This document shows positions 1,434-61,511 of a stretch of 64,000 nt of DNA, one piece after another. Position 1 is the first letter of the stretch. Each line of letters begins with the position of its first letter. Where the stretch lies: the IMG/VR virus record IMGVR_UViG_3300028797_000096, positions 13,860 to 77,859 of that record; one strand, 5' to 3'. This DNA is from a virus (taxonomy: Duplodnaviria; Heunggongvirae; Uroviricota; Caudoviricetes). The notes beneath the pieces were generated by a model. It made no database searches. It was not told where the DNA came from and saw only the letters and a list, made by a program, of their open reading frames with translations. A program made the position numbers and the translations under genes.

Positions 1434-1439
1434 TAGAAC
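1434..1439 (-). promoter_or_regulatory. GTTCTA putative phage promoter
   Basis: AGTTCTATAT, oriented toward the gene starting at 1400. Confidence 0.55.
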
Positions 1440-1480
1440 TGAAAAAGAATCTGTAATTATAGTTACTTCTAGTTAAATTA

Positions 1481-4066
1481 TTAACTTTCAACAATCCACT
1501 CTAATTGTTGATTTACATAATTCCACCTTAATATTAAATTATTAGTGTTTTTTTCAGGTAAGGGTAAATCTGGTAAATTTAGTGGACGATTTATAAGGTC
1601 ATAATAATTACCAGTTGAAGCTACTTGTGCTAAATTTGCTACCCCAGCATCTACTTCATTATCATCATCTGTAATCCAACAAATCCAATCATCCGCTATT
1701 GTATGATTAGCTCTACCTGCTTCCCACTCTTGTTTAGTACCAATCCAATCATACATAATATCATTAGATTTAGTTTGTAAACCAATAGCAGTAATATTTG
1801 AAGAATTAGGCTGTTTTATAATAGTTACATCATCTGTTGTAATTACACTTCCAGAAGAAATATGAATTGTACCATCTGGATCAATTGCAATACCATCACC
1901 TGGTTTATATATTTGTCCGATATTTACCCAATTATTATTATACCAAGTATAAAAAGTATTCTCATCTAATACTTTATAAACTAATCCTTCTTGTAAAGTA
2001 GATTTTCTTTCACCTATAACAAAATCTGTACCACTCATACTCGTATGAAAAGTATTTGTAACTAAATCATACATACCAGCAGCTCGAATAACTTTATTAT
2101 AAGCAGGAATATAATTTAAAACAATTGTATCATCTTCATAAACCGCAAAGTCATATATACTTGTAACTAAAATTCTAACATTAGCATCATTGCCTTTAAA
2201 TAAAAATAAAGTAGAATCTAAACTAAAGTGAGGAATATCTGAATATGTCGAAAGAGTAACATTATCTACTTTTAATTTAGTATTATCTTGCATAACTGTA
2301 TGCTTTGTATTACCCCAATCGGTATCCATACTATAAGATTGTGTACCATATATAAAAGTAGCTCTATTAGTACTATAATTAGCGCCAAATCTAATTTTAT
2401 TACCTTCACTCCATGCAGTACTATAAATACAATTATCTAAACCATCTATTAATTTAAAACTTGCAACTACTTTAGTATGATTATTCGCTTTATAACCAGT
2501 ATCTATATATTGTAAATTATCAGCTGTAATATATTCTAATTCTAAATAATCATCAGATAATCTTGTGTTGCCTGTAGGTAAATCATTAAAAGTTGCTACT
2601 TCACCTTGATATTTATATACACCACCTAATTGTGATTTATTATAGTAATTAACTAAATTATTAGTATATCTATTTACAAATTGTGTTGTACTATTATCAT
2701 ATGTTGATAAATCATCTAATACACTAATTACATCATTAGATATATTAATATGATTTCCCATTTTTAAAGCATCTTGCTTAGCCTCTAATTCTTCTAATTT
2801 TTCAGCAGTTATACCTGAATTAACTGCTTCCATCTGATCTTTATCTAATTCATCTTGTTTATTATCCCAAATCTGCTTTTGTTCTGATGTTACATGAATA
2901 GAAGAATTTCTAGTATGTGCAGTTACTGTACCTGTTACTAGATTTATAGCTGTTTGTGTTGCTCTAGAAATAGGCTTATCTAAATCAGAAGTATTATCAA
3001 CATTACCTAAACCAACTTGTTCTTTAGTTACTTGATGAGGATTATCTGTATCTCTTGTATGTAAATCTAAGTTAGCTACATCTTCTTGTAAATCATTGAT
3101 ATCACTAGCATTTTTTGTAATACTTGGAACATTTGTACCATCACCAGTAATATAGTCTGCTGTTATACCAGAATTTAAAGCATCCCATTGAGCCTGACTA
3201 AAATTACTACTATTTAAAGTAAATTGAAAATTCCATACTGGTATATTATTAGTTACTTCTACACAAATATATCTAGTAGCCGGAGCTACTCCACTTTCTT
3301 CATGCTCTTCATCAGCTAAAACAATAGTATAATCATTTACAGCAGGAATAGCACCGGTACCTCTTTTATACCATACTGTAGCATTATCTAAATCGGCTTT
3401 TGTTGGGAAAGGATTACCATCTACATCATATGTAATATAAGCAGCAGATAAATTTTGTATTGCATAATTTACATAATCTTTATCTGCATAATCAGTTTCT
3501 GCTTCTTGCTTGGATAAATATGTATTATCAACAAATTCTCTAGTTGCAACTGTTTCAGTACTGTTTATAGTAACTATACCGTCTTCACTCTGTAAATTTA
3601 ATGGTAAATCTTCATGACCTATAAACACATGGTTATTACTAGAACCAAATATTTCATAGGCTACATCATCTACCATAACAGTAATAGTATTATTTTCACC
3701 TAAATTAACTGTTTTATGATTATCTACATTTTCATATGTAACACAATTTAATTGAATAATACCATCTATAATTGCATCTAATTGAGATTTAGAAGTAATT
3801 AAAACTTCTCTTGATAATTCTGGTAATGGATTACCTTCTTCATCGACACCTTCACCATTTGCAATTTCTAAATATGTACTACCACCTGTACCTAAAACAT
3901 AATATAATCTATAATCATCAGGATTCTGAGGATCACCATCTTCTACTAATTCATATGAATATACTTGTGTATTTGCAGGAATTATTTGTGTATATAATTC
4001 CCCACCTAACATATAATCACTTCTAGCACGGACAAATCTGTGTATAACTTTTGTTACTGTTGACAT
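1481..4066 (-). CDS. Large tail fibre/receptor-binding-like protein (861 aa)
   Basis: KEQVGLGNVDNTSDLDKPIS fibre motif, a YIDTGY... beta-rich lectin/ConA-like domain, and a C-terminal LAQVASTGNYYDLINRP motif. Confidence 0.7.
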   Translation of the reverse strand: MSTVTKVIHRFVRARSDYMLGGELYTQIIPANTQVYSYELVEDGDPQNPDDYRLYYVLGTGGSTYLEIANGEGVDEEGNPLPELSREVLITSKSQLDAIIDGIIQLNCVTYENVDNHKTVNLGENNTITVMVDDVAYEIFGSSNNHVFIGHEDLPLNLQSEDGIVTINSTETVATREFVDNTYLSKQEAETDYADKDYVNYAIQNLSAAYITYDVDGNPFPTKADLDNATVWYKRGTGAIPAVNDYTIVLADEEHEESGVAPATRYICVEVTNNIPVWNFQFTLNSSNFSQAQWDALNSGITADYITGDGTNVPSITKNASDINDLQEDVANLDLHTRDTDNPHQVTKEQVGLGNVDNTSDLDKPISRATQTAINLVTGTVTAHTRNSSIHVTSEQKQIWDNKQDELDKDQMEAVNSGITAEKLEELEAKQDALKMGNHINISNDVISVLDDLSTYDNSTTQFVNRYTNNLVNYYNKSQLGGVYKYQGEVATFNDLPTGNTRLSDDYLELEYITADNLQYIDTGYKANNHTKVVASFKLIDGLDNCIYSTAWSEGNKIRFGANYSTNRATFIYGTQSYSMDTDWGNTKHTVMQDNTKLKVDNVTLSTYSDIPHFSLDSTLFLFKGNDANVRILVTSIYDFAVYEDDTIVLNYIPAYNKVIRAAGMYDLVTNTFHTSMSGTDFVIGERKSTLQEGLVYKVLDENTFYTWYNNNWVNIGQIYKPGDGIAIDPDGTIHISSGSVITTDDVTIIKQPNSSNITAIGLQTKSNDIMYDWIGTKQEWEAGRANHTIADDWICWITDDDNEVDAGVANLAQVASTGNYYDLINRPLNLPDLPLPEKNTNNLILRWNYVNQQLEWIVES

Positions 4067-4097
4067 ATGAGAATACCTATTATAGTTAATATTTAAT

Positions 4098-4103
4098 TAG
4101 AAC
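4098..4103 (-). promoter_or_regulatory. GTTCTA putative phage promoter
   Basis: AGTTCTAATT about 30 nt upstream of the ATG at 4066. Confidence 0.55.
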
Positions 4104-4132
4104 TTTTTAATTAATTTGTAATTTTTATAGGT

Positions 4133-4239
4133 AAAATAAACCCGGTGGTCAAAAAGGAGGAAAATAACCACCGGGAAGACTGTCGGATGTGTAACACTGA
4201 AAAAATAATAAATCTTAACGATATATCAAAAAATCCGAC
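4133..4239 (-). ncRNA. Candidate small RNA with anti-SD loop
   Basis: GTTCTA at 4251-4246; 5' stem GTCGGAT/ATCCGAC (4239-4233 with 4188-4182); 9-bp CCCGGTGGT/ACCACCGGG terminator stem whose 17-nt loop contains CCTCCTT, followed by a U tract. Confidence 0.5.
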
Positions 4240-4251
4240 TATAAATAGAAC

Positions 4252-4854
4252 TCAACTATTCTTAATTTTTGTATATTCATAGAATTTAACCAAAATATCT
4301 CCTTCTTCTTCTGGTAATTCTTCATTAGAATAATTTAATTCTTTACAATTCCAATCTTTTGTATATTCTTCAATGTCTAAAGGAAATCTAATATATTTAT
4401 CAGGGTCTTTGGTTATATCCTCTGATAAAGTTTTACTTTCTACTTTAGTTAAATAAATTTTATCTACTACATTATTTTCTAAGCAATATTTATAAATAGA
4501 TCTCCCACCACAAATAAATATCTTAGAATAATTAGAAGCAAAGGCTACTGCATCTTCAAGACTTGGCATTTGTATAATACCACCTAACCATTCTTTAGTT
4601 TCATCTTCATTCTTTTTACCTATCCAAACAGCCTGACCTGCTTTATATTCAAAACTAACAACAATATTTAAACGATTTTTCAAAGGATAATCCGGTAATC
4701 CAAAAAATGTTCTATCACCAAATATACAAGGATAACCTTTAGTCATTTGTTTATAATGATAAAAGTCTTGCTTACTATGCCAAGGCATTTTATCTTCAAT
4801 ACCTATAACATTATCTGGACCAATGGCAAAAATAGCACAAATTTCTGATTTCAT
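4252..4854 (-). CDS. folA: Dihydrofolate reductase
   Basis: AIGPDNVIGIEDKMPWHSKQD, GDRTF, PLKNRLNIVVS, FICGGRSIYK and KIYLTKV motifs. Confidence 0.95.
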   Translation of the reverse strand: MKSEICAIFAIGPDNVIGIEDKMPWHSKQDFYHYKQMTKGYPCIFGDRTFFGLPDYPLKNRLNIVVSFEYKAGQAVWIGKKNEDETKEWLGGIIQMPSLEDAVAFASNYSKIFICGGRSIYKYCLENNVVDKIYLTKVESKTLSEDITKDPDKYIRFPLDIEEYTKDWNCKELNYSNEELPEEEGDILVKFYEYTKIKNS

Positions 4855-5903
4855 TCTACAGTACCTCTTTTTCTTAAAATTAAACCTAATCTAGTCTTAC
4901 CACCATCTTCTAAAATATCTGCATAACTAGGAATCTTTGCTACTTTTTTATTTTTCATATCATTTACTTGTTTTGTTATTAAAGCAGGACTTATATTAAA
5001 TCTAGCTTTATAAGTATTTGATAATGATTTAATAAAACTCAATACTTTTGGTGCTCTTAATCCTGCTTTATATAAAAATATCTTTCCTAGTATTACTACT
5101 TTTTTACTTAATTGCCCACCATCTTCATTTTCATAAAAAGTAGCAATATCATTTGTATATTTACCATTTTCATATTGCATACTAAGCATAAGAGCTTTCT
5201 TTTTTATTTCTGTAATATTAAATGTATCCACTGTTGTATCTAAATCAGTAATTGGATCTTTAACTATATCCATTAACGATTTATCATTATTATTTTTAGA
5301 ATCTAATCTAAAATCTAACGAAGGTCTAAACAAAGTAGATTCTGGGCGTTGAGTAGCTAAAAATGCTTGATGTCTCCTTTCACCTGTAATTGCCATTCTA
5401 CATATATAAATAAATTCTTTATATAATACTGGATTGTATACTACAGTAGATTCTTTCTTTAATCTTTCACGATGAAACCAGCGATCTCTGTAGAATTTAC
5501 AAATCTTAGCATATTTTAACCAAAACTCAGACGCCCAATCTTCTGCACTACCACTAGCATTATTCATTACAAAACCATTAAAAGTAATGTAATTTTTTAA
5601 ATATTCTGCTATAGATAAAATACAAGTTTCATAGCGTTCTTCAGTTTCATTCATAGCAGGCTGAATGTCTACTCTTTTCAAATATTTAATCTGAGCTTCT
5701 AAACCTTCAATTTGTTTCATACCTTCAATATACTTATTTAATTCCTCTGGTTTTAAACATGTATATATTAACAAATTTTCATCGTTTTTACAGCTCTTTC
5801 TAAAAGCATCTAAATCTTTATAATCAGAATCAATAAATTTTTTAAAACTCTGCTTATAATTAGTACGCTTTGATAAACGCTTACCTTGTATTTTTACTGC
5901 CAT
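4851..5903 (-). CDS. Divergent sigma70-family-like factor (putative)
   Basis: Region-2-like AEDWASEFWLKYAK...FIYICRMAITGERRH and region-3/4-linker-like SLDFRLDSKNNNDKSLMDIVKD. Confidence 0.45.
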   Translation of the reverse strand: MAVKIQGKRLSKRTNYKQSFKKFIDSDYKDLDAFRKSCKNDENLLIYTCLKPEELNKYIEGMKQIEGLEAQIKYLKRVDIQPAMNETEERYETCILSIAEYLKNYITFNGFVMNNASGSAEDWASEFWLKYAKICKFYRDRWFHRERLKKESTVVYNPVLYKEFIYICRMAITGERRHQAFLATQRPESTLFRPSLDFRLDSKNNNDKSLMDIVKDPITDLDTTVDTFNITEIKKKALMLSMQYENGKYTNDIATFYENEDGGQLSKKVVILGKIFLYKAGLRAPKVLSFIKSLSNTYKARFNISPALITKQVNDMKNKKVAKIPSYADILEDGGKTRLGLILRKRGTVE

Positions 5904-7060: not shown

Positions 7061-7510
7061 TTAATCCTCCTTCTGTTCTGCTTGTTTTAATAATTCTTCT
7101 ACTGATATATGTAATGCAATCGCTATAATTTCACACTGTAACTGATACTTATCTGTACCCTGATGAAAATGATGCTTGTCACAAAGCAAACATAAATTAT
7201 TTTGATTATATAACAAATCTTTACGCTTACTTCTTAAATGTATATGATGAACTTGTGTACCTTTTTTACCACAAACTATACATTTACCTTTATATCTTTC
7301 TATACAAACCTTTCTAGCTTCTTCCCATTTATCTTTAGCTTTATCATTTTGTTTTTTTAATTCATAATCTTCTGGTTTTTTTAATTCTGTCTTTTTTAAA
7401 ATATAATTTTTCTTGGCTTTTAAAGGACTTTTCTTTAATGTATAAAATTTTTTAGGTTTTAACGGCGTTCTTTTCATCATATCCTTTATAGTAGTGTTGG
7501 GTGAAGTCAT
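7061..7510 (-). CDS. HNH endonuclease with basic repetitive N-terminus
   Basis: CIVCG...QVHHI...NLCLLCDKHH. Confidence 0.85.
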   Translation of the reverse strand: MTSPNTTIKDMMKRTPLKPKKFYTLKKSPLKAKKNYILKKTELKKPEDYELKKQNDKAKDKWEEARKVCIERYKGKCIVCGKKGTQVHHIHLRSKRKDLLYNQNNLCLLCDKHHFHQGTDKYQLQCEIIAIALHISVEELLKQAEQKED

Positions 7511-7551: not shown

Positions 7552-8358
7552 TTAGAAAGGCATAGTATCTGCAATTTCTGTATTATTATTTATAGCGTTT
7601 TTTGCATTTACATATTCATTTACCATATCTTCTGCAACTTGACGCATCTTCAACATTTCTTCATCAGAAGGTGCTTTCCATACATCAGATAAAGTTAAAT
7701 TTTCATTTTCTTCTTTTAATTTAGCAACAACCTCTGCAGATGGCATAAATTGGCCAAAACTAATTTCACGTTCCCATTTACCATTATCAGTTGAACGATA
7801 AAAACGAATTGTATTACTTGCTTCCCATTGTAATAAGTCAGGTGTTTCAGCATCCATATACTTTTCAACTAACCAACGTGTTAAATAAGTACCTTTTTGT
7901 TGCAAAATAGAAACATGAGCTTGATCCCAATCTTTCTTTAAATCTGTATCCAAAACAACTGCTTTAATATTAGAAGTTAATACAGGATCAAATACAGGTA
8001 TTGGACCATATTTACCCTCTGTTTTTAATTCATCTTCTTTAAAGCCCATTGCTAATAATTTACGCTTGGCTTCACAAATTGGACATTTAATACCCAAATT
8101 TTTCAAATGACTTGTTTGTTCAGGACAAATCATATGCAAATCTTTATTAGGACCTAAATTCCAATGCTGAGCAGCAATAGTAGAAAAAATATTATTTTCT
8201 TTTGAATTACCTGGCAATAATTTAAACTTTACTTCACGTTTAAAAGCTTTACCATTTTGTACCCAATCAATAGGAGTTAATGCTGGGGCTGCGTCTTTTT
8301 TTGCTTGTTTATCATCTTTTAATAATGATTCCATCCATTCCATATTAATTTGTTTCAT
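7552..8358 (-). CDS. Single-stranded DNA-binding protein, T4 gp32-like
   Basis: FKLLPG, H-W...ICP...CPICE zinc motif, acidic C-terminus ending IADTMPF. Confidence 0.75.
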   Translation of the reverse strand: MKQINMEWMESLLKDDKQAKKDAAPALTPIDWVQNGKAFKREVKFKLLPGNSKENNIFSTIAAQHWNLGPNKDLHMICPEQTSHLKNLGIKCPICEAKRKLLAMGFKEDELKTEGKYGPIPVFDPVLTSNIKAVVLDTDLKKDWDQAHVSILQQKGTYLTRWLVEKYMDAETPDLLQWEASNTIRFYRSTDNGKWEREISFGQFMPSAEVVAKLKEENENLTLSDVWKAPSDEEMLKMRQVAEDMVNEYVNAKNAINNNTEIADTMPF

Positions 8359-8382: not shown

Positions 8383-8422
8383 AAGAGGTTTTAGACAGTT
8401 ATCCTCTGTCATTATATAGAAC
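8383..8422 (-). promoter_or_regulatory. GTTCTA promoter plus structured ssb leader
   Basis: GTTCTA (8422-8417), 6 nt, then GACAG-AGGATAA-CTGTC hairpin with a downstream CCTCT complement. Confidence 0.5.
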
Positions 8423-11439: not shown

Positions 11440-11996
11440 TATACTTCTCCACGATCAACCATATCATATAATTCATAAGCATTATCAACTAATTTATCAT
11501 ATGTCAAAGGACGCTTCATAGGATTCTGTTTAAAACGTTTATATTCATCTATTGCATTTTGTTCAATGGCTGTACGGAACATTTTATTAAACAATTCCAT
11601 ATTCTTTTTAGCTAATTTCTCACTATCAAATACAACCCAAAAAGATTCTTTATTTTTATAATTATTTCTAGTATAATCTTTGTCTACAACACTAATATTA
11701 AATCCATATTGTGGTTTTAAAATATCACAAATTTCTTGAGTTGTCATATCTGGAAATTGTTCTCTTTTCCAATTAACATACATTCTACAAACATTATTGG
11801 CTTTCTTTAATAAATCACGAGATTCTGGTACAATTGGTAAACAATTATGATAATAACCAGTATCCCCTAGCATAACTTTTTTATCTGAAAACTTAACTTT
11901 TGACCGTTTCAGTAATTCAGCAACTCCTTCTAAAAAAGAATTTAACTTTTCATTATTAGTTTTTTTATCATTTAGAAGCAAATACTGTAAATTCAT
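11439..11996 (-). CDS. Hypothetical protein
   Basis: Long ORF coupled to the gp46-like start. Confidence 0.7.
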   Translation of the reverse strand: MNLQYLLLNDKKTNNEKLNSFLEGVAELLKRSKVKFSDKKVMLGDTGYYHNCLPIVPESRDLLKKANNVCRMYVNWKREQFPDMTTQEICDILKPQYGFNISVVDKDYTRNNYKNKESFWVVFDSEKLAKKNMELFNKMFRTAIEQNAIDEYKRFKQNPMKRPLTYDKLVDNAYELYDMVDRGEV

Positions 11997-11997
11997 A

Positions 11998-12909
11998 TTA
12001 TTTACCTTTTGTTTGTTTGATTAAATTTTTGTATCCACTACAAGAATTTCCAATATAGTTTGGATTAAAATATTTATCTGCTAAACATTCGTTTTTATAA
12101 ATACAATCCTTACATAATAGAATCTGTTTAGATTGAAGTTTTTCTAAGTTTTTTTCCAATTCATCTAAATCTTCATATTCGTCTAAATAAAAATTACCCA
12201 TAGGATCAAAACTTCCTAATGCAAATTTATTTGTTGGTAAAATATATACTGTCTTTATAGGAAAATTTTCTGTTTTAATAATCCCTTCTATTTCTAATTT
12301 ATTTATAAAACTAAACTGCATATAAGGAACTAATTTTAAATAATCTGCAATTATTTTTTCATAATTAGAATATCCTATATTTGGTAATTGGCTATATTCA
12401 GTTTTTTGATAAGGATTAATTTTCCAAGTTTTAATACCTAATTTATTTAATTTAGTAATAATTTCCAATTGGTTACTTTCTACTGAAATATCTAAAGATT
12501 CTAAATTAATAATTTTACCTGTAGAAACAGCCGCTTTAATATTTTGAAATACTTTATCTGTATCTTCACTATAACTATTAAAATTATAATTGACTTTAAT
12601 AATATCAGCACCTTCAATCAAAGAACGATTATAATTTACAAAACTTGTACAAATTGTAATATTTGTACTATAAATTTTTAATAATCTAAATAGTAAATCA
12701 AAATAAAAATCAGAAAGTTCAGAAATTTCACCACCTTCTATAGAAATGCTTAAAACATTAAATTTAAAATATAATTGAGGTAATTCTTTTTCTAACCATG
12801 GTAAATTTAAAGTATCTTGTTTAGATCTTAAAGAATTAAAAGAATAATACGGATAATTCCAATTATTTCTGTATAAAGGTAAAATAACTAATTTAATATC
12901 ATTCTTCAT
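11998..12909 (-). CDS. Radical SAM/SPASM-fold protein lacking the CxxxCxxC triad
   Basis: ILPLYRNNWNYPYY at the triad position, ISIEGGEI motif, C-terminal CKDCIYKNECL...CSG. ATG at 12909 preferred over the TTG at 12957. Confidence 0.6.
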   Translation of the reverse strand: MKNDIKLVILPLYRNNWNYPYYSFNSLRSKQDTLNLPWLEKELPQLYFKFNVLSISIEGGEISELSDFYFDLLFRLLKIYSTNITICTSFVNYNRSLIEGADIIKVNYNFNSYSEDTDKVFQNIKAAVSTGKIINLESLDISVESNQLEIITKLNKLGIKTWKINPYQKTEYSQLPNIGYSNYEKIIADYLKLVPYMQFSFINKLEIEGIIKTENFPIKTVYILPTNKFALGSFDPMGNFYLDEYEDLDELEKNLEKLQSKQILLCKDCIYKNECLADKYFNPNYIGNSCSGYKNLIKQTKGK

Positions 12910-12982
12910 ATTAATTAGAATACTTTTTTGATGATAAAATTTCAAAAAATTTTCCAATTCTAAAAGAAAAGTTTAATAAAAG

Positions 12983-49670: not shown

Positions 49671-50082
49671 GATTTAATGTATTTATAGAACCTTCTTTTA
49701 CTTTAGAAACAATCCATTCTCGGCACTGTTCTAAAGTTCTCCATTCTAAAACCTCATAACCCATTTTTTCTAATAAATTACAGCAAGCAATCTGATCTTG
49801 ACTTTTTTTACCTTTACCAAATTTGAATTCTACAAAAGTTACTTCTTTATTATGTAAAATAATCAAATCTGGTTGACCAACAGTTGCACCCATGGCTATG
49901 ATATGTTGTTTATAAATTGCTTTATGTGTAATATCGGGAATAAATCCAATACCATTAAACACATCGGTTGCAAAACATAACATATTATGAGCACGTAAAA
50001 GTGATACACAAGCCTTCTGTAACTGATGCTCAGAAGTAATAGGTTTTTCTTTTTTTAAAGATAATTGTCTTTTATATACCAT
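49657..50082 (-). CDS. VRR-NUC family nuclease
   Basis: EHQLQ, GQPDLII, FVEFK...SQDQ. Confidence 0.85.
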   Translation of the reverse strand: MVYKRQLSLKKEKPITSEHQLQKACVSLLRAHNMLCFATDVFNGIGFIPDITHKAIYKQHIIAMGATVGQPDLIILHNKEVTFVEFKFGKGKKSQDQIACCNLLEKMGYEVLEWRTLEQCREWIVSKVKEGSINTLNHEME

Positions 50083-50464: not shown

Positions 50465-50731
50465 TTAATCTTCATTTAAATCTGGAAAAGTTTCATATTG
50501 AACATAGCTTTGTAATAATATAATTAATAAACTTACGCACTCTTTGTCTAATACGAAATTTAATTCTTTTTCTTTAATTATCAATAAAGTTGTATTACCA
50601 TTTGCTTTTATTTCTAACTCTATCTTTTTTCCAGTTGAATCTTTAAATGACACTTCTGAACTAGTTGTATATTCCTTTTGTGCCTTAATCTTTTTCTTAA
50701 ATAGTTTTTTAATAGAAGAAAATACCTTCAT
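50465..50731 (-). CDS. Hypothetical protein
   Basis: SD AAGGAG; GTTCTA at 50759-50754. Confidence 0.7.
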   Translation of the reverse strand: MKVFSSIKKLFKKKIKAQKEYTTSSEVSFKDSTGKKIELEIKANGNTTLLIIKEKELNFVLDKECVSLLIILLQSYVQYETFPDLNED

Positions 50732-50808
50732 ATAAACTCCTTTTAATAATAATTAGAACTGGAAATATTTATAAAAGTTCTAAAATAAATAAAAGAATTC
50801 TATATAAT

Positions 50809-52362
50809 ATGATTTATAATACACAAACATTTTGGAGTTACATTTGTAATGAAAGTGAATATATGCTTAATCAAGTTAAGGATATATTAACTCGTAAAGA
50901 ATATAATTTTGATACTAAAAAATATAATATTCGTAAATTTTACCAAAAAATTAATCGAATAGTCGTAGGTGATATAATGCCATATGAAAGCATTAGATTT
51001 CCTACTGGTTTAATTAAATTTATTACAGACAAACTTCCAATTCAAGTAGAAATCAAAGATAGAGGTTTTAAGAAATATACAGAACAAGAAGTTTTAGACT
51101 ATGCAAATATTGTAAAAGAAATTAATCCAAAATTTGAAATTCGTGATTATCAAGTAGAGGCTGTATTAACTTCTTTAAATACTTTTGAAAGTTTAATTTA
51201 TTCTGCTACAGGATCTGGTAAAACTTCTATTATGTCATTAGTTTGTAAAATATTAGAAGAAGACAGAATTCTTATAATGAATGGAAACAATTTTATTTTA
51301 CAACAAATATATGATCGTTTATTATCATTTGGGATTACAGATATTAGTTGGAATCCTAGTAAAGAACCTGATTATACCAAAAGAATTGTAATTATAAATA
51401 CAAAAAGCTCCGATGAAAGACTTAATAAACAAAATCCTGCATATTTAGATTTTTTACAAAAAGTTAATGTATGGATAACAGATGAATGTCAACATCTTCA
51501 AAGTTTGACTTCTTTTGAACCAGTTTTTTATATGAATGAAGAAAATTTAAAACATATCATTGGTTATTCTGGATCTCCATTTAGAAACTATGATCATCCT
51601 TATAATAACCCAGATGATTTTACTTTAATTGCTATATTAGGTGAACCTGCTTTTGTATATGAAATGAAAGATACAATAGGTGATAAAAACGTAGCTCAGC
51701 CATATTCATATTTTATTAATTATCCAAATCGTGCTCCATTTTTACCTGAACATTTAAAAGATAATTACTTTGTACAGTATAGATTAAGCATTACTTATAA
51801 TAAAAACAGAAATAAAGCTGGAATTGAGATGCTTAAATATTTAAACAAAAATAATGTAAAGACTCTTGTTTCTATTAATAATATTAAACCAGGGCAAAAT
51901 TTAATGAAAACTTTAAAAGAAGAAGGAGTTGATTCTATTTTTGTTTGTGGTGATAATACTGTATATGAATGGAAAATGTCTAAAAATAATAAACCACATT
52001 TAAAAACAAGAGAAGGAGGAACTGAAGAAATTCAACAAGCTTTTGATAGAGGCTATAATATAATTTTTGGATCTACGGTATTGGACGAAGGTGTTGATGT
52101 AGAAAATTTCCAAGCAGTTGTTATGTTTTCAGCCGGAAGAACTCCTATTGCGGCTGCGCAAAGAGTTGGAAGAGCTAGTCGTAAGAAGAAAACTGGTAAA
52201 AATATTAGTTTTGTAATAGATTTTAAAGATACCGGAGGTTTACCTACTTTTCAATCTCATTATGAACAACGTAAAAAATTAATGGGAGATTTGGGTATTA
52301 TAAATCTTCCAAAAGTACAAGATTTCTGCAAAATGATAGAAGAATTACATAATGAAGAATAG
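50809..52362 (+). CDS. uvsW: SF2 DNA helicase, UvsW-like
   Basis: RDYQ, ATGSGKT, DECQH, SGS, LDEGVD, QRVGRASR. Confidence 0.88.
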   Translation: MIYNTQTFWSYICNESEYMLNQVKDILTRKEYNFDTKKYNIRKFYQKINRIVVGDIMPYESIRFPTGLIKFITDKLPIQVEIKDRGFKKYTEQEVLDYANIVKEINPKFEIRDYQVEAVLTSLNTFESLIYSATGSGKTSIMSLVCKILEEDRILIMNGNNFILQQIYDRLLSFGITDISWNPSKEPDYTKRIVIINTKSSDERLNKQNPAYLDFLQKVNVWITDECQHLQSLTSFEPVFYMNEENLKHIIGYSGSPFRNYDHPYNNPDDFTLIAILGEPAFVYEMKDTIGDKNVAQPYSYFINYPNRAPFLPEHLKDNYFVQYRLSITYNKNRNKAGIEMLKYLNKNNVKTLVSINNIKPGQNLMKTLKEEGVDSIFVCGDNTVYEWKMSKNNKPHLKTREGGTEEIQQAFDRGYNIIFGSTVLDEGVDVENFQAVVMFSAGRTPIAAAQRVGRASRKKKTGKNISFVIDFKDTGGLPTFQSHYEQRKKLMGDLGIINLPKVQDFCKMIEELHNEE

Positions 52363-53855: not shown

Positions 53856-54086
53856 ATGATAGGTGTAATTATTACTATTATAGTAGTAATTTTATTAATT
53901 TCATTAATGTCAGATTTTCGTGTATTTACAGCATATACATTTGATATTGATGAAGCATATTCAGAATTTTATAAATGGAAAAAACACTATGAACAAACTA
54001 CCCACCGAGAAGTTATAATACTTGATATAAAACGCGGTGGAAGTTATGTAGATTTTTATTATAAAACTAAAATAAAAAAGAAATAA
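53856..54086 (+). CDS. Small membrane-anchored protein
   Basis: N-terminal hydrophobic helix; SD AAGGAG. Confidence 0.65.
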   Translation: MIGVIITIIVVILLISLMSDFRVFTAYTFDIDEAYSEFYKWKKHYEQTTHREVIILDIKRGGSYVDFYYKTKIKKK

Positions 54087-54203
54087 AAAAATAACCCCAG
54101 ACCGAAATCTGGGGAATTCTTTTAATTAAGCGTCCTCATGGTTTGGATTTCAAATTTCCAATTATTTAACCTATGGGTCTACGCAGGAAAGAATCAAACC
54201 TAT
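54085..54203 (-). ncRNA. Candidate small RNA
   Basis: GTTCTA at 54215-54210; nested stems GGTTTG/CAAACC and TTTCC/GGAAA; CCCCAGA/TCTGGGG terminator with a TTCG loop and U tract. Confidence 0.4.
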
Positions 54204-54217
54204 GTTTTATAGAACGC

Positions 54218-55333: not shown

Positions 55334-55924
55334 CTAAAGTAGAAAAAAGTAATTCATTAAGATATAGATTATTAAACAAGTAGGAACACTATAAAATGCT
55401 ACTTCTTCAATATACAAACCCCATGCATTTGGATTACCGGCTTTATTATTTTTATGGTTTTTAATTAAATAATATACTAACCAGCCCAACCAGACCGCTA
55501 ATCCAATATACCATTCTTTACGCAAGCAGCAACCAATCATTGCACCACCTGCAGCTACCCAAGCAGCTGACGCAATATGAGGTTTTAATTCTGTTTTTAA
55601 ATAATCTGCACATAATGCTACACCAATAATACCACCCATACAAATAGCAAATGCAAACTTACTCCAAGCAAGTAAAGGATAAGGTGCATAATACATCCAA
55701 CCACCTGATGTATACATACCATCAGCTAATAAAATTGGATATATTAATAAGATAGGCATAGCTACTAACAATGCTCTAAATTTCCAACCAGTTTTATAAA
55801 AAGTAGAAGATAAACTAGAAGCATCTTTACCTTTGTTATATTTTTTACTATACCATTTTAAATAGCCATATAACATTCCTGCCATACCTAAACAGCATGT
55901 TAATCCGATCAACAATTCATTCAT
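55334..55924 (-). CDS. Multi-pass membrane protein
   Basis: About six hydrophobic helices. Confidence 0.75.
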   Translation of the reverse strand: MNELLIGLTCCLGMAGMLYGYLKWYSKKYNKGKDASSLSSTFYKTGWKFRALLVAMPILLIYPILLADGMYTSGGWMYYAPYPLLAWSKFAFAICMGGIIGVALCADYLKTELKPHIASAAWVAAGGAMIGCCLRKEWYIGLAVWLGWLVYYLIKNHKNNKAGNPNAWGLYIEEVAFYSVPTCLIIYILMNYFFLL

Positions 55925-56223
55925 TATTCATCCTTTTCTTTTTTACCGTTAATATAGTTATTAATAGCTGTACAAATAGACTCTACAACTGCTTGATAAC
56001 CTAATTGTACAGTTGCTAATAATCCGCCACAACAACAAAATATATTCCAGACATCCATATGTCCAAAAGATTTAGCAGCAAATATACCAGCCATTACAGA
56101 TAAAATTAAAGAAACATATGGTGCTAACTTATGAAAATTTTTAATATTTAGCTGTTTCAACCATTCAATAATACCAATAATAGCCATACTTCCTGCAATA
56201 TAAAATTCAAATAATTCCATCAT
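55924..56223 (-). CDS. Holin-like membrane protein
   Basis: Three hydrophobic segments, charged C-terminus, Met-Met start; GTTCTA at 56259-56254. Confidence 0.55.
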   Translation of the reverse strand: MMELFEFYIAGSMAIIGIIEWLKQLNIKNFHKLAPYVSLILSVMAGIFAAKSFGHMDVWNIFCCCGGLLATVQLGYQAVVESICTAINNYINGKKEKDE

Positions 56224-56378
56224 TTTATATTCCTTTTGCGATTTATATTAATATAGAACTACCAAAATGACCTAATTTTAACAGTCATTTTAAAATGGAA
56301 AATTTCGATTCTACTAACTATTTTAAGTGTTTACATTACCAATATTTTTGCTATAATAATTAAAAAAGGAAGTAAATT

Positions 56379-57512
56379 ATGACTCAACTATTAGCTGAAA
56401 TGTATCTAGACTATTCAGATATTCTTATAAAACCTAAGCTTGGTAATAATTGTAGTTCTCGTAAAGATGTTAAATTAAACCGAGAATATACTTTTAAACG
56501 GGGTCAAATTCGTAAAGGATTAGGTATATTTAATGCAAATATGGCAACAGTAGGTAATTTTGCTACAGCTAAAAAATTATTAAAAGCAGGTATGTTTGCT
56601 ACTCTTCATAAATTTTATACGGCAGAAGAAATAGTTGCATTTATGCATGAATGTCAAGATGAAAAAATTGATTATAGTAATTTATTTATAACTATTGGTA
56701 TTAGGCATTGGCCAGAAGAATTTAGCAAACTTAGAGAAATTGAAGATTCTGGTGTATGGCTAAAAGAAAATATTTGTATAGATGCACCTAACTTTTATAT
56801 CCCAGAAGCTTATAGAATATTAAAACAAATCCGAGAAAATTATTTAGATGCGGTTATTATGTGCGGTAATATTGCATCTAGTGATATTTGTCATAAATTA
56901 CTTGAATATGCTGATATTTTAAAAATTGGTATTGGTCCAGGTAGCGTATGTAAAACTAGATCACAAACAGGATGTGGAGTACCTATGGTTTCTAATATTC
57001 TTGAATGTGCAGATGTAGTACATGCAGTAGGTGGTATGATTTGTGCAGATGGAGGAATTACAGAAGTAGGTAGTATTTCTAAAGCTTTCTGTTTAAATGC
57101 TGATTTTGTTATGATTGGTGGTATGTTTGCGGGTACTGATGAAGCAGAAGGTGAAGTAATTACAGAATGTATTAGATCAAATAAGTATAGCTATGAAGAA
57201 ATTAACAATAAACAAATACCCTTAGATCCAATATATGATTATAAAAAATATAAATTATATTATGGAATGAGTTCGGTATTAGCCAACAATAAATTTGCTG
57301 GAGGTATGCAAAATTATAAAGCAAGTGAAGGTAGAGAAGTATTAATTCCTTATACAGGATCTTTAGATGCTATTTTACAAGATATCAAAGGAGGAGTAGC
57401 TTCTACTTGTACATATATAGGAGCTACTTCAGTAAAATATATGTCTAAATGTGCTACTCTAATAAAAGTTAATCATACAATAAATACGGTGTTTGAAAAA
57501 TATGAAAAATAA
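56379..57512 (+). CDS. guaC: GMP reductase (GuaC type 1)
   Basis: LDYSDILIKP, ANMATVG, HKFY, KIGIGPGSVC.TR, ADGG, GGMFAG, YGMSS, ASEG motifs. Confidence 0.9.
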   Translation: MTQLLAEMYLDYSDILIKPKLGNNCSSRKDVKLNREYTFKRGQIRKGLGIFNANMATVGNFATAKKLLKAGMFATLHKFYTAEEIVAFMHECQDEKIDYSNLFITIGIRHWPEEFSKLREIEDSGVWLKENICIDAPNFYIPEAYRILKQIRENYLDAVIMCGNIASSDICHKLLEYADILKIGIGPGSVCKTRSQTGCGVPMVSNILECADVVHAVGGMICADGGITEVGSISKAFCLNADFVMIGGMFAGTDEAEGEVITECIRSNKYSYEEINNKQIPLDPIYDYKKYKLYYGMSSVLANNKFAGGMQNYKASEGREVLIPYTGSLDAILQDIKGGVASTCTYIGATSVKYMSKCATLIKVNHTINTVFEKYEK

Positions 57513-58011
57513 AATATCAAAAATTAAATATAGTTTACAAGAAATAGATTTATTATGTCCAGAATGTCATAAAGCTGTACTTAATAAAGTAAATGGTAAA
57601 TATTTTATTCCAGCCTCTTTAAAATATTGGGGTGATAGTTATATGAATACTTGTCCTCACTGTGGTTATTCATTTGATAATACTACATTTGTAATGGGAA
57701 CGCATATAAAACAATTTTTACCAGATATACATCCTGCAGTATCTGAATTATTAGATGATATATTTTGGGCATCTATGAATGCAAATGATTTTTATCCTTG
57801 TTGTGCAGACGATGAAGAATTTGAAAATTGTATGATTCAATTTTATTTCTATCTTACATTTATAGAAAAGATGAATCCAACAAATACTCTTACTTCATTA
57901 ATAGAATGGCATAGAGGTGAATTAGGTTGGGCAAAAAAAGTTACTAAAGAATTAAAACAAATAAGAAAATTAACAGGCTGGGAATGGTATCCAAGAACAC
58001 AAAAAGGATAA
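57502..58011 (+). CDS. Zinc-ribbon hypothetical protein
   Basis: CPEC...CPHCG. Confidence 0.65.
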   Translation: MKNKISKIKYSLQEIDLLCPECHKAVLNKVNGKYFIPASLKYWGDSYMNTCPHCGYSFDNTTFVMGTHIKQFLPDIHPAVSELLDDIFWASMNANDFYPCCADDEEFENCMIQFYFYLTFIEKMNPTNTLTSLIEWHRGELGWAKKVTKELKQIRKLTGWEWYPRTQKG

Positions 58012-58014
58012 GCA

Positions 58015-58230
58015 ATGATATATATTATTTATGTAGCATGTTTTATAGCAGGTATGGTAGCAACATTAGTTTTTTTAGCTACTGTTGGATGTTCGCATAG
58101 TTATCAGACACGAATACACAAAGTAGATCATTATTATTCCGATGGTACATATCGTTATACAAGTTGGATTTATACAAACACATGTAGACATTGTGGTAAA
58201 GTAAAAGTAAAAAATGTAGGTAAAAGGTAA
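58015..58230 (+). CDS. Small membrane-anchored protein with a zinc motif
   Basis: TM helix followed by CSH...CRHCG. Confidence 0.6.
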   Translation: MIYIIYVACFIAGMVATLVFLATVGCSHSYQTRIHKVDHYYSDGTYRYTSWIYTNTCRHCGKVKVKNVGKR

Positions 58231-58234
58231 TAAA

Positions 58235-58453
58235 ATGATAGAACATACAGCTTTTTTAAACGCAGGTAGTAAAGTTAGATTACCAAATAAAGATCCTAAT
58301 ACATCAAATTGGTATGTAAATTATCAAGTTGGTAACGAATGGAAAAAAACAGAATTTCCAGATTCAGTGGAAGCATGGAGATTTTATTATAAACAATTCA
58401 ATTCGACTAGAGATGAAATTTTAGCAGAATTAAAAAAGGTAAATTCAAAATGA
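58235..58453 (+). CDS. Hypothetical protein
   Basis: Coupled ORF. Confidence 0.6.
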   Translation: MIEHTAFLNAGSKVRLPNKDPNTSNWYVNYQVGNEWKKTEFPDSVEAWRFYYKQFNSTRDEILAELKKVNSK

Positions 58454-59244
58454 AAAAAGAAATTATAATTACTAATGCTAATAACCAAGAAAAATTTATT
58501 TGTTTTAAAATAGATGGTTTGAAAGATGGTATTATGGTAGGTTTATATCCTAATAATGATGGTTTAAGTATTGCTTATAGGGGTGATGTTGTTGGTGTTC
58601 CATTTAATGCTGATTCTGCTTTAATATATGAATTAAATGATAATTCTTTTCCAAGTAAAGATGAAATTGAAAATAATGGGTTATATGATCCAAATTGGAA
58701 ACTTGACAACCATAATATAATTGATTCAAAATTATCAGGACCAGTAAATGCTACTTCTCATCCATTAAAAACAGAATGGGAAATAAAAGCAGATGACAAA
58801 ATTACAACAACACTTACTATGGATAAAGAAACATATGATTGGTTGACTACTCCTAGTGAAGAAGATGATGATGTAGGATATTGGCAACCAGATCAAGTCA
58901 CAGAATTAGATGATGAAGCATTTGATGAATTTGAAAAAGATGTGATGAATCCTGAAATAGATGAAAAAAAAGTAGAAGCAGCTAAACAGATATTTGAAGA
59001 TGTAGATAAGATTCCTGTAGATATATCTAGTTGTATTGAAATGTATGGTAAACCTCATTTATTAGAGTTGATGGATGAATGGGGTATAAACGGAAGCAAT
59101 TATAATGATTTTAGAAGCGTAATTCAAGAACATTGCTTTAATAAAGGTATATACGCATTCGATGATATAGAAAAATCTTGGAAAGAACATGTAAAAAGTT
59201 TAAAAGATGTAGTTAAGAGTATAAAGAAAAATGGCAATAATTAA
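58450..59244 (+). CDS. Acidic hypothetical protein
   Basis: Long ORF; Asp/Glu-rich centre. Confidence 0.7.
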   Translation: MKKEIIITNANNQEKFICFKIDGLKDGIMVGLYPNNDGLSIAYRGDVVGVPFNADSALIYELNDNSFPSKDEIENNGLYDPNWKLDNHNIIDSKLSGPVNATSHPLKTEWEIKADDKITTTLTMDKETYDWLTTPSEEDDDVGYWQPDQVTELDDEAFDEFEKDVMNPEIDEKKVEAAKQIFEDVDKIPVDISSCIEMYGKPHLLELMDEWGINGSNYNDFRSVIQEHCFNKGIYAFDDIEKSWKEHVKSLKDVVKSIKKNGNN

Positions 59245-59557
59245 ACGTTATGATAAAATCTTTGCAGATTTCTTATTAAAACATTGCGATGATATTTATA
59301 TTCCTAAATATATTACAGTAAGTCCATGCGGTATAAATCATGAACCCCTTTTTGAACTATGGGAAACAGAACCTTGGATTGGTAGATGTTCTTTTTGTGA
59401 TTGGCATTGGGATTGGGTAGGTTCAGGAAATATTACTTTTCATACTAATACTGTAAAAGATTTAAATAGACTGGGTAGGATATTATTTAGTAAAGAAATA
59501 AGTAAAAAATCACATTGGGATATAGATAATTGTATTATTCAATTATATGAGGATTAA
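59231..59557 (+). CDS. Hypothetical protein
   Basis: Coupled ORF. Confidence 0.65.
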   Translation: MAIIKRYDKIFADFLLKHCDDIYIPKYITVSPCGINHEPLFELWETEPWIGRCSFCDWHWDWVGSGNITFHTNTVKDLNRLGRILFSKEISKKSHWDIDNCIIQLYED

Positions 59558-59619
59558 CAATGAAAGGCTTTTATCGCTTTTATTTTCATATTAATTGATT
59601 ATAAATAAGGAGAAAACTA

Positions 59620-59805
59620 ATGAAATTTAGAGAATATGATAATCTTTTTGTTAAAATTCTTAAATCTACTAAACCAGATGAGTTAGAATGGGCTATTTCA
59701 AATGCAGCTGAACAATATAATTTAGTAGATATGCAATATTCTACAACTAATTTAAACAATGATATAGTTGAATATAGTGTTTTATTGCTTCTACAAGAAA
59801 AATAA
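59620..59805 (+). CDS. Hypothetical protein
   Basis: SD AAGGAG. Confidence 0.65.
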   Translation: MKFREYDNLFVKILKSTKPDELEWAISNAAEQYNLVDMQYSTTNLNNDIVEYSVLLLLQEK

Positions 59806-59848
59806 ATTACTGCTTTACATTATTTAAAAACTATATATAATACATAGT

Positions 59849-60541
59849 ATGAGTAATAAAACATACTATGAAACTTTAGGAATATCAAATACTGCTACTT
59901 CTGAGGAAATCAAAAGGGCATATCATGATTTATGCAAAAAATATCATCCAGATATTAATCCTAAAACAACTGAAAAGTTTAAAGAAATTAATATAGCATA
60001 TCAAACTTTAATTGATCCAGCTAAACGTAAACAGTATGATTATAACCTTAATACCAATTCATCAGAAGAAACATATTCAGATTCTTCCTATGATGAATTT
60101 AAAGAATTTGTTTATCGTTATTCAAAAGAAAAAGATCTATCAGATGAACCTATTGTTAATATATTAGAAGAGTTTGATAAATATAAATTCGAAACAGCTG
60201 TATCTGCTATATGGAATCGTAATATATTTGTACTCTTAGGTAATACTATCTTTTGTACTTCAATGACTTTAGGTGTATTATCTAATCGTATAGCTAAATT
60301 ATTTAAAAAATCATTACTATCCAAAAAGAACTATAAATCACCATGGATTACAGCTTTTTTTGATGCAATGGCAGAAAATACTCTTGGTAAATTTACTTGG
60401 TGGTCTATCTGTATGTTCTTTATCACTTTTGCTAAAGCTATTTACTACTTAGCCAAATTTGCCTACTTCATCTTTAAATGGCTACTTATTATTGCTGGTG
60501 CTATACTATTCCTATCAGCTATATCTTCACATAAAAAGTAA
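59849..60541 (+). CDS. J-domain (DnaJ-like) protein with C-terminal TM helices
   Basis: YYETLG...EIKRAYHDLCKKYHPD...FKEINIAYQTL.DP.KR..YD. Confidence 0.9.
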   Translation: MSNKTYYETLGISNTATSEEIKRAYHDLCKKYHPDINPKTTEKFKEINIAYQTLIDPAKRKQYDYNLNTNSSEETYSDSSYDEFKEFVYRYSKEKDLSDEPIVNILEEFDKYKFETAVSAIWNRNIFVLLGNTIFCTSMTLGVLSNRIAKLFKKSLLSKKNYKSPWITAFFDAMAENTLGKFTWWSICMFFITFAKAIYYLAKFAYFIFKWLLIIAGAILFLSAISSHKK

Positions 60542-60629
60542 AAACTATATTATATATACAGTAAATAATTTTTATATTTACATTCAATATTTTTTTATTG
60601 TATAATGTTTATATATAAGGAGAAATTAT

Positions 60630-60923
60630 ATGACTGTATATAGTAAAATACAAGCAAATAAACTAGCCCCCGAATTAATACATGGTGTAATTAGAGAAAT
60701 AGAAGAAAATCCACCTAAAAATATGGATTGGGTAGAAAAAATTTTAATAAATGATCAAACTAATGTCTACCGTATAATAATAAAAGAAAATATGGATTAT
60801 TATCCACAATGCATTTTAAAGTATATGCAAAAAACCAAACTAAGAAGTATAACAGGAAATTTATACGAAATTGAACAAAAATTAACTGAAGCATATGAAA
60901 CTAACCAAGCTAAATCATGGTAA
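60630..60923 (+). CDS. Hypothetical protein
   Basis: TGTATAAT -10 and SD AAGGAG upstream; followed by an AAACCCCT/AGGGGTTT bidirectional terminator at about 60927-60952. Confidence 0.7.
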   Translation: MTVYSKIQANKLAPELIHGVIREIEENPPKNMDWVEKILINDQTNVYRIIIKENMDYYPQCILKYMQKTKLRSITGNLYEIEQKLTEAYETNQAKSW

Positions 60924-60955
60924 AAGAAAACCCCTAATAATCAGGGGTTTCTTAT

Positions 60956-61468
60956 TTACCAATTTCCATCTTCTGAAGCATCATTTTCTTCTTCGGAATC
61001 TTCTTCATCTTCCTCTTCATCATCATCTGGAATATGAGTATGCCATTCATTACCTTCTTTATCAGTAATATAAACAACAGTCCAATCTGAATCTGATTCA
61101 TCAAATTCTACATCAATAGGTCCATCTGCTTCAAATATAGCGGCTCCACCTTTACTAACTAAATTACCCAATGCTCCAGATACTTTACCTATATATTCAC
61201 ATACACAAACCATCCCAGCATCTGCAAAAAATGCTCCAGTACCATCAACATTTGGTCCATATAATGTATTATTCCAATCACCAAACCCTGTAGTACATAC
61301 AAACGCTTGACCCTGAACAAAATCTTTTAATGCTACCTCTACTTCATGATCAAACATAGCAGACCAAATAGGATCTTTAGAATATACTTCACATCTATTT
61401 AAACAAGCATCCCATACCTCTTCCGGTAAAATATAACAAGGATCTGTTATAACATATTGCTTTCTCAT
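60956..61468 (-). CDS. Conserved phage hypothetical protein with an acidic tail
   Basis: YVITDPCY...DAGMVCV pattern frequent in phages; GTTCTA at 61507-61502. Confidence 0.7.
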   Translation of the reverse strand: MRKQYVITDPCYILPEEVWDACLNRCEVYSKDPIWSAMFDHEVEVALKDFVQGQAFVCTTGFGDWNNTLYGPNVDGTGAFFADAGMVCVCEYIGKVSGALGNLVSKGGAAIFEADGPIDVEFDESDSDWTVVYITDKEGNEWHTHIPDDDEEEDEEDSEEENDASEDGNW

Positions 61469-61511
61469 ACCATATTTCCTTTATTTTTTAAATACTTAAT
61501 ATAGAACTATA

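Follow-up and report, generated by a model that had tools for sequence, protein, structure and literature searches.

AGTTCTA, a probable phage-specific promoter element of a large uncultured myovirus and its relatives

The 64,000-nt window analysed in this study corresponds to bases 13860–77859 of a single 231,566-bp viral contig of IMG/VR (IMGVR_UViG_3300028797_000096), which has a G+C content of 29% and an estimated completeness of 93%. As judged from the sequence, ~30 transcription units in this window are headed by the strict box AGTTCTA followed by an A/T-only stretch. This box is probably the core element of promoters that define a phage-specific class of transcription units; this class would resemble the late class of bacteriophage T4 in design and carry a new box sequence. 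A phage-private late promoter consisting of a −10 element only is a kind of element that is already known, and AGTTCTA is well supported as a promoter. What is new here is the start-site register defined by three features, the leaderless subset of genes, the fold-level test of a candidate reader protein, and the range over which this protein and the box co-occur. Positions given below are those of the window unless they are referred to the genome, i.e. the whole contig.

Distribution and shape of the box

All 29 positions and strands at which the hexamer GTTCTA had been listed in the initial annotation of the window carry it, and 28 of the 29 sites are non-coding or lie at a gene edge, as had been claimed; the exception is the site at 49686, which overlaps the very end of the upstream gene. 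The raw count in the window is marginal (48 copies against 36 ± 6 in shuffles, with 2 of 100 shuffles reaching 48), and position and orientation were therefore the properties on which enrichment was tested. Using a gene map of the whole genome obtained by simple calling of the longest open reading frames (ORFs; 303 ORFs, 92% coding), GTTCTA was found to be the top sense hexamer in upstream non-coding DNA: 54 copies are present, whereas a first-order model predicts 3.8, and the Shine–Dalgarno word AAGGAG ranks behind it. Intergenic DNA contains 63 sites, compared with 9.4 ± 2.9 (maximum, 20) in 500 dinucleotide-preserving shuffles made from the intergenic segments themselves, and the density of the hexamer is 3.4 per kb in intergenic and 0.40 per kb in coding DNA (8.5-fold). 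In gaps between co-directional genes, 39 sites are in sense and 3 in antisense orientation (p = 5.6e-9). The initial annotation had proposed a phage-specific, single-element promoter of the −10 type analogous to those of the T4 late genes, and enrichment, orientation, and position all support this proposal.

An alignment of the 54 co-oriented upstream sites consists of A (45 of 54), GTTCTA, and then ~7 positions nearly free of G/C, for which the majority reading is TATAATA; further upstream nothing is conserved, and there is no −35 element. AGTTCTA itself has 45 sense occurrences against 1.7 expected. The hexamer is very strict, as none of its single-mismatch variants is enriched as a degenerate promoter class; ATTCTA, for example, occurs 12 times against 12.2 expected. 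In the window, A stands immediately before the box (box position −1) at 23 of the 29 listed sites, and the heptamers downstream contain hardly anything but A/T. Nearly all of the 19 unlisted sites fall within genes and have T, G, or C at position −1 and G/C downstream; they thus resemble background. One of them, at 21537 (+), has every feature of a functional site and had been missed.

The statement that the box often follows a terminator holds to a modest extent: a terminator-like hairpin is located within 60 nt upstream of 9 of the 54 boxes and of 14 of 250 controls (Fisher p = 0.01). At two places, 37193–37225 (+) and genome 169540–169575 (−), the box sits inside the terminator hairpin, occupying its loop and 3′ arm, so that the end of one unit and the promoter of the next have bases in common.

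Predicted start-site register and leaderless genes

ATG codons at the start of ORFs of 60 aa or more show a spike exactly 6 nt after the box (5 cases in the genome; Poisson p ~1e-5). There are no such codons at offsets 0–5 and 7–8, and ordinary leadered starts begin from ~17–18 nt. In the window, this spacing is found for the box at 42790–42795 (+), which precedes ATG 42802 of the endolysin gene (42802–43494) and keeps the same spacing in the L003 and L008 orthologues (L numbers designate related contigs); for that at 44121–44126 (−), located 3′ of a terminator and preceding an HNH-endonuclease-like gene (43491–44114); and for that at 49185–49190 (−), which precedes a 316-aa ORF (48228–49178) and is spaced identically in the L003 orthologue. 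The variant ATTCTA adds two cases, at 12916–12921 (−) in front of ATG 12909 of a 303-aa ORF (11998–12909) and at 42441–42446 (−) in front of an 87-aa ORF (42171–42434). No 6-nt spike was found for the other GTTCTA variants or for a TATAAT-like control word. The relatives supply five more cases, three in L003/L008 and two in L010/L011, and the latter two coincide with gene starts from the independent calls of the source pipelines. None of the genes with leaderless spacing has a Shine–Dalgarno sequence, and in the endolysin and the 316-aa protein, N-terminal conservation starts with the box-spaced ATG. The spacing and the orthologues together indicate 42802 (endolysin) and 12909 (303-aa ORF) as the true starts of two genes that were called too long by the longest-ORF procedure (by 42736–42802 and 12909–12957, respectively).

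Two further features fall into the same register. No Shine–Dalgarno core starts inside the 6-nt spacer, eight start 6–12 nt after the box, and one starts exactly at base 7. In a candidate small RNA encoded downstream of the DHFR gene (see below), the GUC at base 7 after the box forms the first base of the 5′ stem in three genomes. Because the leaderless ATGs, the Shine–Dalgarno boundary, and the 5′ stem of the RNA agree, we infer that the seventh base after the box is +1, which would place the box at −12 to −7 and the preceding A at −13. A start at about this distance had been predicted in the initial annotation, and it is now matched by these three independent sequence features. The accompanying idea that AGTTCT aligns in register with TATTCT −10 boxes upstream of 12909, 42434, and 52434 is borne out in two of the three examples, namely by ATTCTA-N6-ATG at 12916 and 42441, and fails for 52434.

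One of the two boxes upstream of the tail sheath gene, the proximal one, forms the left arm of an 8-nt inverted repeat at 37275–37304 (+) (GTTCTAAT ... ATTAGAAC, 14 nt apart). The repeat spans the predicted start, is retained in full in L002 and L003 and in part in L008, and may represent an operator or a DNA hairpin at what would be the strongest late promoter.

Conservation in related contigs

The nearest named relatives of the phage are distant jumbo myoviruses, e.g. PaBG and Lu11 (~30% sheath identity across half of the protein), and a DNA search of GenBank phages with the window gave no match. The clade, which comprises uncultured AT-rich myoviruses of ~200–260 kb, is known from metagenomes only. 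Related contigs with 53–67% tail-sheath identity retain the box in intergenic DNA at orthologous junctions, with diverged flanks, and the two tandem boxes upstream of the sheath gene are among those retained. In an unbiased k-mer test, GTTCTA was first or near first among the upstream hexamers in every related locus (pooled, 62 against 2.7). It is still the top upstream hexamer in two much more distant contigs of ~200 kb.

Candidate small RNAs downstream of the box

The same small-RNA design is found directly after the DHFR stop codon at 4133–4251 (−) of the window, 11887–12000 (+) of L010, and 11673–11790 (+) of L011. It consists, in this order, of the GTTCTA box, a transcript from GUC with a 5′ stem, and a GC-rich terminator whose loop of 13–15 nt carries CCUCC(UU), which is complementary to Shine–Dalgarno sequences. 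In the window, the box (4246–4251, −) abuts the DHFR stop and heads a candidate RNA of ~107 nt with a predicted +1 at 4239, and no protein gene is associated with it. The predicted fold has an energy of −32.8 kcal/mol (z = −6.0).

A second box lacking a downstream protein gene, at 54210–54215 (−) and with C at position −1, points at a possible RNA of ~119 nt (54085–54215, −) with a UUCG-loop terminator, the fold of which is weakly better than those of shuffles (z = −2.3). A search across the window with Rfam at the gathering threshold gave no match.

Proposed mechanism and alternative explanations

In the proposed mechanism, the box would take the place of the bacterial −10 element, the six A/T-only bases after it would serve as the melting segment, and no −35 element would be involved. 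The most likely reader would be the RNA polymerase core of the host combined with a phage sigma-like subunit, for which the best candidate is an orphan protein of 350 aa, probably expressed from a promoter other than GTTCTA. The class would drive virion, chaperonin, lysis, homing-endonuclease, and a few DNA-metabolism genes as well as at least one small RNA, and in ~7 of the genes, which would be leaderless, transcription would start at the A of the ATG. Host sigma-70-type promoters (TTTACA-N17-TATAAT or GCTTTAC...) would serve the early and auxiliary genes. Judging from gene content, the timing of the class is most likely late and perhaps middle too.

Two observations weigh against this mechanism and favour one in which the A/T hexamer that follows the box serves the sigma-A/sigma-70 holoenzyme of the host as an ordinary −10 element: the mean sequence after the box is TATAAT-like, and a box at genome 123356 overlaps, in a compatible manner, the −10 of a complete GCTTTAC-N17-TATAAT promoter. 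GTTCTA would then be located at about −18 to −13 and be contacted by sigma region 3, as in an extended −10 promoter, or by a phage activator, and transcription would start ~13 nt after the box. We regard this as unlikely. At the positions equivalent to A(−11) and T(−7), only 57% of the sites have A and 56% have T, which is well short of real −10 elements. In addition, the ATG codons with the 6-nt spacing, which belong to 7 genes of this genome and 5 of relatives, would fall outside the transcript, eight Shine–Dalgarno sequences would be truncated, and the conserved 5′ stem of the small RNA begins at base 7 rather than at about base 13.

That the box is read by an unrecognised phage RNA polymerase, either a very divergent single-subunit enzyme or a crAss/YonO-like one, also seems a rather poor prospect. 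Its geometry of a short box, ~6 nt, and the start is like that of promoters used by phage polymerases, e.g. those of AR9 (PMC5312081), and large ORFs of 1372, 1184, 858, 812, 809, and 805 aa remain without annotation. However, a six-frame Pfam search of the genome detected no Rpb1 (Rpb1_2), Rpb2 (Rpb2_6), T7-type polymerase, or Sigma70_r2 domain (the T7-type search having no positive control), and the DxDGD motif is absent from all ORFs; the large ORFs encode DNA polymerase, baseplate, or fibre-like proteins or are orphans, and the 1372-aa orphan is located in the baseplate cluster. For its sigma-70-type early promoters, moreover, the phage clearly depends on the host polymerase. It is improbable that GUUCUA acts in RNA as an endonucleolytic processing site with cleavage ~6 nt downstream, generating the leaderless 5′ ends as well. 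A strand-specific motif with a fixed ATG spacing would fit this too, and primer-extension ends cannot separate initiation from processing (PMC2988020, a review on T4). In the divergent gaps of 77 and 81 nt, however, back-to-back boxes occur with neither an upstream transcript nor a match to a sigma-70-type promoter, which argues for initiation rather than RNA processing. Boxes are also often placed directly 3′ of terminators, and the downstream A/T-only tract fits DNA melting. The raw count in the window would be compatible with a chance or compositional artefact of an AT-rich genome, but given the intergenic excess over shuffles, the 39:3 orientation bias, and the retention of the box at orthologous junctions in divergent genomes, such an artefact is extremely improbable.

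Candidate reader of the box

If the AGTTCTA box is a −10-type element read with the help of a phage subunit, the 350-aa orphan encoded at 4851–5903 (−) is the best candidate for the reader. The family of this protein is conserved, comprises more than 120 clusters on contigs of up to 263 kb, and has no Pfam domain; a tblastn search of GenBank phages with the protein gave no match. An AlphaFold model built from 34 sequences (mean pLDDT, 75.8) contains a putative sigma-region-2-like fold at residues ~83–190. In a search of 48,161 PDB chains conducted independently of Foldseek, sigma-2 domains ranked first, with RpoE (Z 6.7 over 86 residues), SigR (6.5), and SigH (6.4); at least 12 further sigma factors align at residues 83–190, and the overall Z range is 5.0–6.7. 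Foldseek searches against PDB and AFDB clusters also placed sigma factors first, with weak E values (0.2–2), and in a language-model feature search of a protein atlas, 12 neighbouring viral clusters were 100% Sigma70_r2. The best-conserved stretch of the family falls in the sigma-2-like domain. Box and family are found together in all genomes that were examined, down to a protein identity of 32–34%, where GTTCTA is still the top upstream hexamer. In four of four relatives, the gene has no box upstream, as expected for a factor that is made before its promoters fire.

Several results speak against this assignment. Z values below 7, as obtained here, can arise by chance with helical domains, and an ESM Atlas shape search with the 350-aa model returned no sigma factors. 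No Pfam sigma match (Sigma70_r2) was obtained in 39 members of the family, an hhalign comparison of the family with T4 gp55 gave a probability of 0.5%, the protein has no sequence match in PDB, and an exhaustive profile search matched 28 representative clusters, all inside the family, without any bridge to sigma factors. The C-terminal domain, folded alone (pLDDT, 81), was most similar to generic helical pairs (best Z, 5.3); it gave scattered helix-turn-helix matches near Z 4 and weak matches to SigB and sigma-28, and no clear sigma-4 domain was found. The box is unchanged even where the protein is only 32–34% identical, i.e. there is no co-variation, and the co-occurrence is thus compatible with common descent alone.

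On balance, that the 350-aa protein is the reader of the box is a tentative proposal with slightly less than even prospects. It is a more doubtful possibility that the family constitutes a new branch of sigma-like proteins that cannot be recognized by sequence and that, with a sigma-2-like core and a novel C-terminal domain, may redirect the host RNA polymerase to AGTTCTA. If so, a box having a fixed G and C and lacking the A(−11) and T(−7) that are flipped by known sigma-2 domains would imply a different way of promoter recognition and opening, used across a large clade of jumbo phages from gut and rumen that have not been cultured. These phages would also start several mRNAs exactly at the ATG and drive small RNAs with anti-Shine–Dalgarno loops from the same class. 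Should the protein prove to be a sigma factor, both sigma factors and the −10 elements they can read would be more diverse in sequence than is known.

Other candidates and sources of support were considered. The 350-aa gene shares the neighbourhood of gp46/gp47, but the gene order is not collinear with that of T4, and in more distant relatives the gene adjoins SHMT/primase instead of gp46/gp47; synteny was accordingly given no weight. Searches of the genome for gp55 (phrog_234, phrog_12791, and the T4 gp55 protein) and for the gp45 clamp (profile phrog_223) found nothing, and a clamp-loader-like AAA+ protein is encoded at genome 160770–161297. The 268-aa ORF at 7552–8358, which adjoins the gp46/gp47 homologues, was rejected as a gp55 equivalent: it has no PHROG or Pfam match, its atlas features are gp32-like, and a pattern scan of viral contigs revealed no relatives.

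Comparison with known promoter systems

T4 late promoters have an 8-bp box at the −10 position with an A/T-rich melting segment downstream and no −35 conservation; they comprise ~50 tightly conserved sites in both polarities, and the box (TATAAATA) is read by the Escherichia coli RNA polymerase core with gp55, the co-activator gp33, and the sliding clamp gp45 (PMC2988020). The class described here is similar in having a single −10 box followed by an A/T-rich segment, no −35 element, tightly conserved sites that number ~50 per genome and lie on both strands, virion and lysis genes as its targets, and sigma-70 early promoters alongside. The candidate reader may also resemble gp55, in which a sigma-region-2-like domain is all that is clearly recognizable, as its model shows only a putative domain of this kind. 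In contrast, AGTTCTA is unrelated in sequence to the T4 box, has a fixed G and C, and lacks bases of the A(−11)/T(−7) type. The T4 box is not enriched in the genome (11 sense occurrences against 7.1 expected). No gp55 or gp45 is detected here, and several genes are leaderless.

In SPO1, gp28 and gp33/34 are phage-encoded sigma factors, and the SPO1 promoter classes have both −35 and −10 elements. The gp36 protein of phiEco32 has likewise been named as a phage-encoded sigma factor (PMC5312081). By analogy, the phage studied here may also use a specificity subunit, of which the 350-aa protein is the candidate, to redirect the host core to private promoters of later genes; whereas the sigma factors of phiEco32 and SPO1 are recognizable by sequence as members of the sigma-70 family, the 350-aa family is not.

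AR9 and phiKZ are comparable in that an AT-rich jumbo phage uses a short element ~6 nt upstream of the start with a very strict consensus. The consensus sequences are different, i.e. AAATATATATTAT-N6-G (early) and AACA-N6-TA/G (late) in AR9 and TATG (PMC5312081). Furthermore, AR9 and phiKZ encode split beta/beta′ polymerases, none of which is detectable here, and AR9 genes have leaders of 26–491 nt (PMC5312081), unlike the several leaderless genes of this phage. Sigma-70-type promoters, including the early class of the phage itself, have their −10 hexamer at the same distance from the start as the box; the box differs from them in having no −35 element, in sharing no key position with TATAAT, and in serving different gene blocks. 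No description of a GTTCTA or AGTTCTA box was found in the literature searched on phage promoters, where the only matches were to primers or in papers on other subjects.

The box provides a ready-made transcription map for a large uncultured clade of ~200–260 kb phages: it marks the starts of units, corrects start codons (endolysin, 42802; 303-aa ORF, 12909), and indicates which genes are leaderless and where non-coding RNAs may be encoded. It would represent the T4-style design of a late promoter, with one −10 box and no −35 element, re-invented or re-coded with an unrelated sequence, and a specific orphan protein can be nominated as its specificity factor. A 7-bp promoter that is orthogonal to the TATAAT promoters of the host, together with a single factor, could be a useful part for synthetic biology.

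Genes headed by the box

The contig encodes a virion with a contractile tail (sheath, tube, portal, baseplate, and fibres) and, in addition, GroES/GroEL, a ClpP-like protease, SbcCD (gp46/gp47 type), DHFR, dCMP deaminase, helicases, an endolysin, and a holin-like protein. As the initial annotation had noted, the box heads mostly virion and lysis genes, namely those for the tail fibre, sheath, tube, prohead-protease-like protein, GroES/GroEL (at an atypical site), endolysin, and holin-like protein; it also heads a 55-aa membrane ORF, an HNH endonuclease gene, and many orphans. Some boxes precede DNA-metabolism genes (the helicase gene, the gp32-like orphan, and the 805-aa orphan), and a purely late class is therefore too narrow a description. 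Of the 19 divergent gaps, 12 contain at least one box.

In the left part of the window, the box at 1434–1439 (−), with A at −1 and only A/T downstream, is located 33 nt upstream of a 98-aa ORF (1104–1400), and that at 4098–4103 (−) 31 nt upstream of the 861-aa tail-fibre-like gene (1481–4066). The box at 8417–8422 (−), which has C at −1, lies 58 nt upstream of the 268-aa gp32-like orphan (7552–8358) and is kept at the corresponding junction of L010 and L011. A tandem pair at 15655–15660 (−; proximal) and 15714–15719 (−; distal) precedes the 805-aa orphan (13186–15603). The site at 18394–18399 (+), at the stop of 16880–18394 and 270 nt upstream of GroES/GroEL, is atypical in having G after the box and remains uncertain; an ATTCTA-TATAAT variant occurs near it at 18411. 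The box at 20718–20723 (+) is only 9 nt upstream of ATG 20733, rendering the 271-aa ORF nearly leaderless, and the newly recognized one at 21537–21542 (+) is situated within the 3′ end of the same ORF (20733–21548), 24 nt upstream of a 147-aa ORF (21567–22010), with A at −1 and A/T-only sequence downstream. An 804-aa gene (25329–27743) and a 133-aa ORF (32206–32607) are preceded, at 36 and 22 nt, by the boxes at 25287–25292 (+) and 32178–32183 (+), respectively.

The divergent pair at 33964–33969 (−) and 34014–34019 (+) heads, on one side, a 55-aa hydrophobic ORF (33775–33942) with an AAGGAG Shine–Dalgarno sequence and, on the other, a 358-aa ORF (34101–35177), for which the box has T at −1, is 81 nt upstream, and is kept in L002 and L008. 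Immediately 3′ of a terminator hairpin, the box at 35237–35242 (+) precedes a 91-aa ORF (35263–35538) by 20 nt; that at 35572–35577 (+), upstream of a 237-aa ORF (35666–36379), is kept in L002, L003, and L008. Of the two tail-sheath boxes, the distal one (37204–37209, +) lies within the loop and 3′ arm of the terminator hairpin of the preceding gene, and the proximal one (37275–37280, +), 47 nt upstream of ATG 37328, is kept in all seven related contigs with diverging flanks.

The leaderless endolysin box forms a back-to-back divergent pair with that at 42776–42781 (−), which has G at −1 and is 20 nt upstream of an 89-aa ORF (42486–42755). On the same strand, boxes are found 82 nt upstream of a 241-aa ORF (44994–44999 and 44186–44911, respectively), 48 nt upstream of the 818-aa prohead-protease-like gene (47519–47524 and 45014–47470), and 42 nt upstream of the tail tube gene (48197–48202 and 47609–48154). 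The site at 49686–49691 (−), within the end of the upstream gene, with G at −1 and 15 nt upstream of a 155-aa ORF (49203–49670), is a weaker candidate. In the 77-nt divergent gap, the box at 50754–50759 (−) is 22 nt upstream of an 88-aa ORF (50465–50731) and that at 50777–50782 (+) is 26 nt upstream of the helicase gene (50809–52362). The remaining sites are those at 56254–56259 (−), 30 nt upstream of the holin-like 99-aa ORF (55924–56223) and with a sigma-70-type promoter (56330–56357) across the gap, and at 61502–61507 (−), 33 nt upstream of a 170-aa ORF (60956–61468).

Two HNH homing-endonuclease-like genes, at 7061–7510 (−) and 43491–44114 (−), are inserted in conserved gene blocks. Since the latter is leaderless behind its own GTTCTA box, this mobile gene appears to have acquired the private promoter of the phage.

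Other promoter classes and non-coding features

The presence of host-like promoters in the block 56379–60923, stated in the initial annotation, was confirmed: TTTACA-N16–18-TATAAT occurs at 56330, 59814, and 60577. The first gene of this block encodes an IMPDH/GMP-reductase homologue, and the others include one for a DnaJ-domain protein. Throughout the genome, the GCTTTAC early class has 14 members against 0.5 expected, concentrated in the 78–124 kb block, where GTTCTA is rare.

At 59812–59851 (+), an early-type promoter (GCTTTACA-N17-TATAAT) is located only 7 nt upstream of the ATG (59849) of the DnaJ-domain gene, and the sigma-70-type transcript of this gene would thus be nearly leaderless too. 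At the composite site outside the window (genome 123356–123386, +), a GCTTTAC −35 element is combined with TATAAT at 17 nt, which overlaps the last two bases of AGTTCTA; the gene at this site may be expressed in both temporal classes, with starts ~4 nt apart.

A non-coding stretch of ~230 nt (12958–13185) separates the 805-aa orphan from the 303-aa ORF. A terminator and a short run rich in G and C (CGCGCGCGTGCG) are followed there by ~150 nt of repeats of the TATAA/TAATA type that consist almost exclusively of A/T; the stretch could be an origin-like or bent-DNA region.

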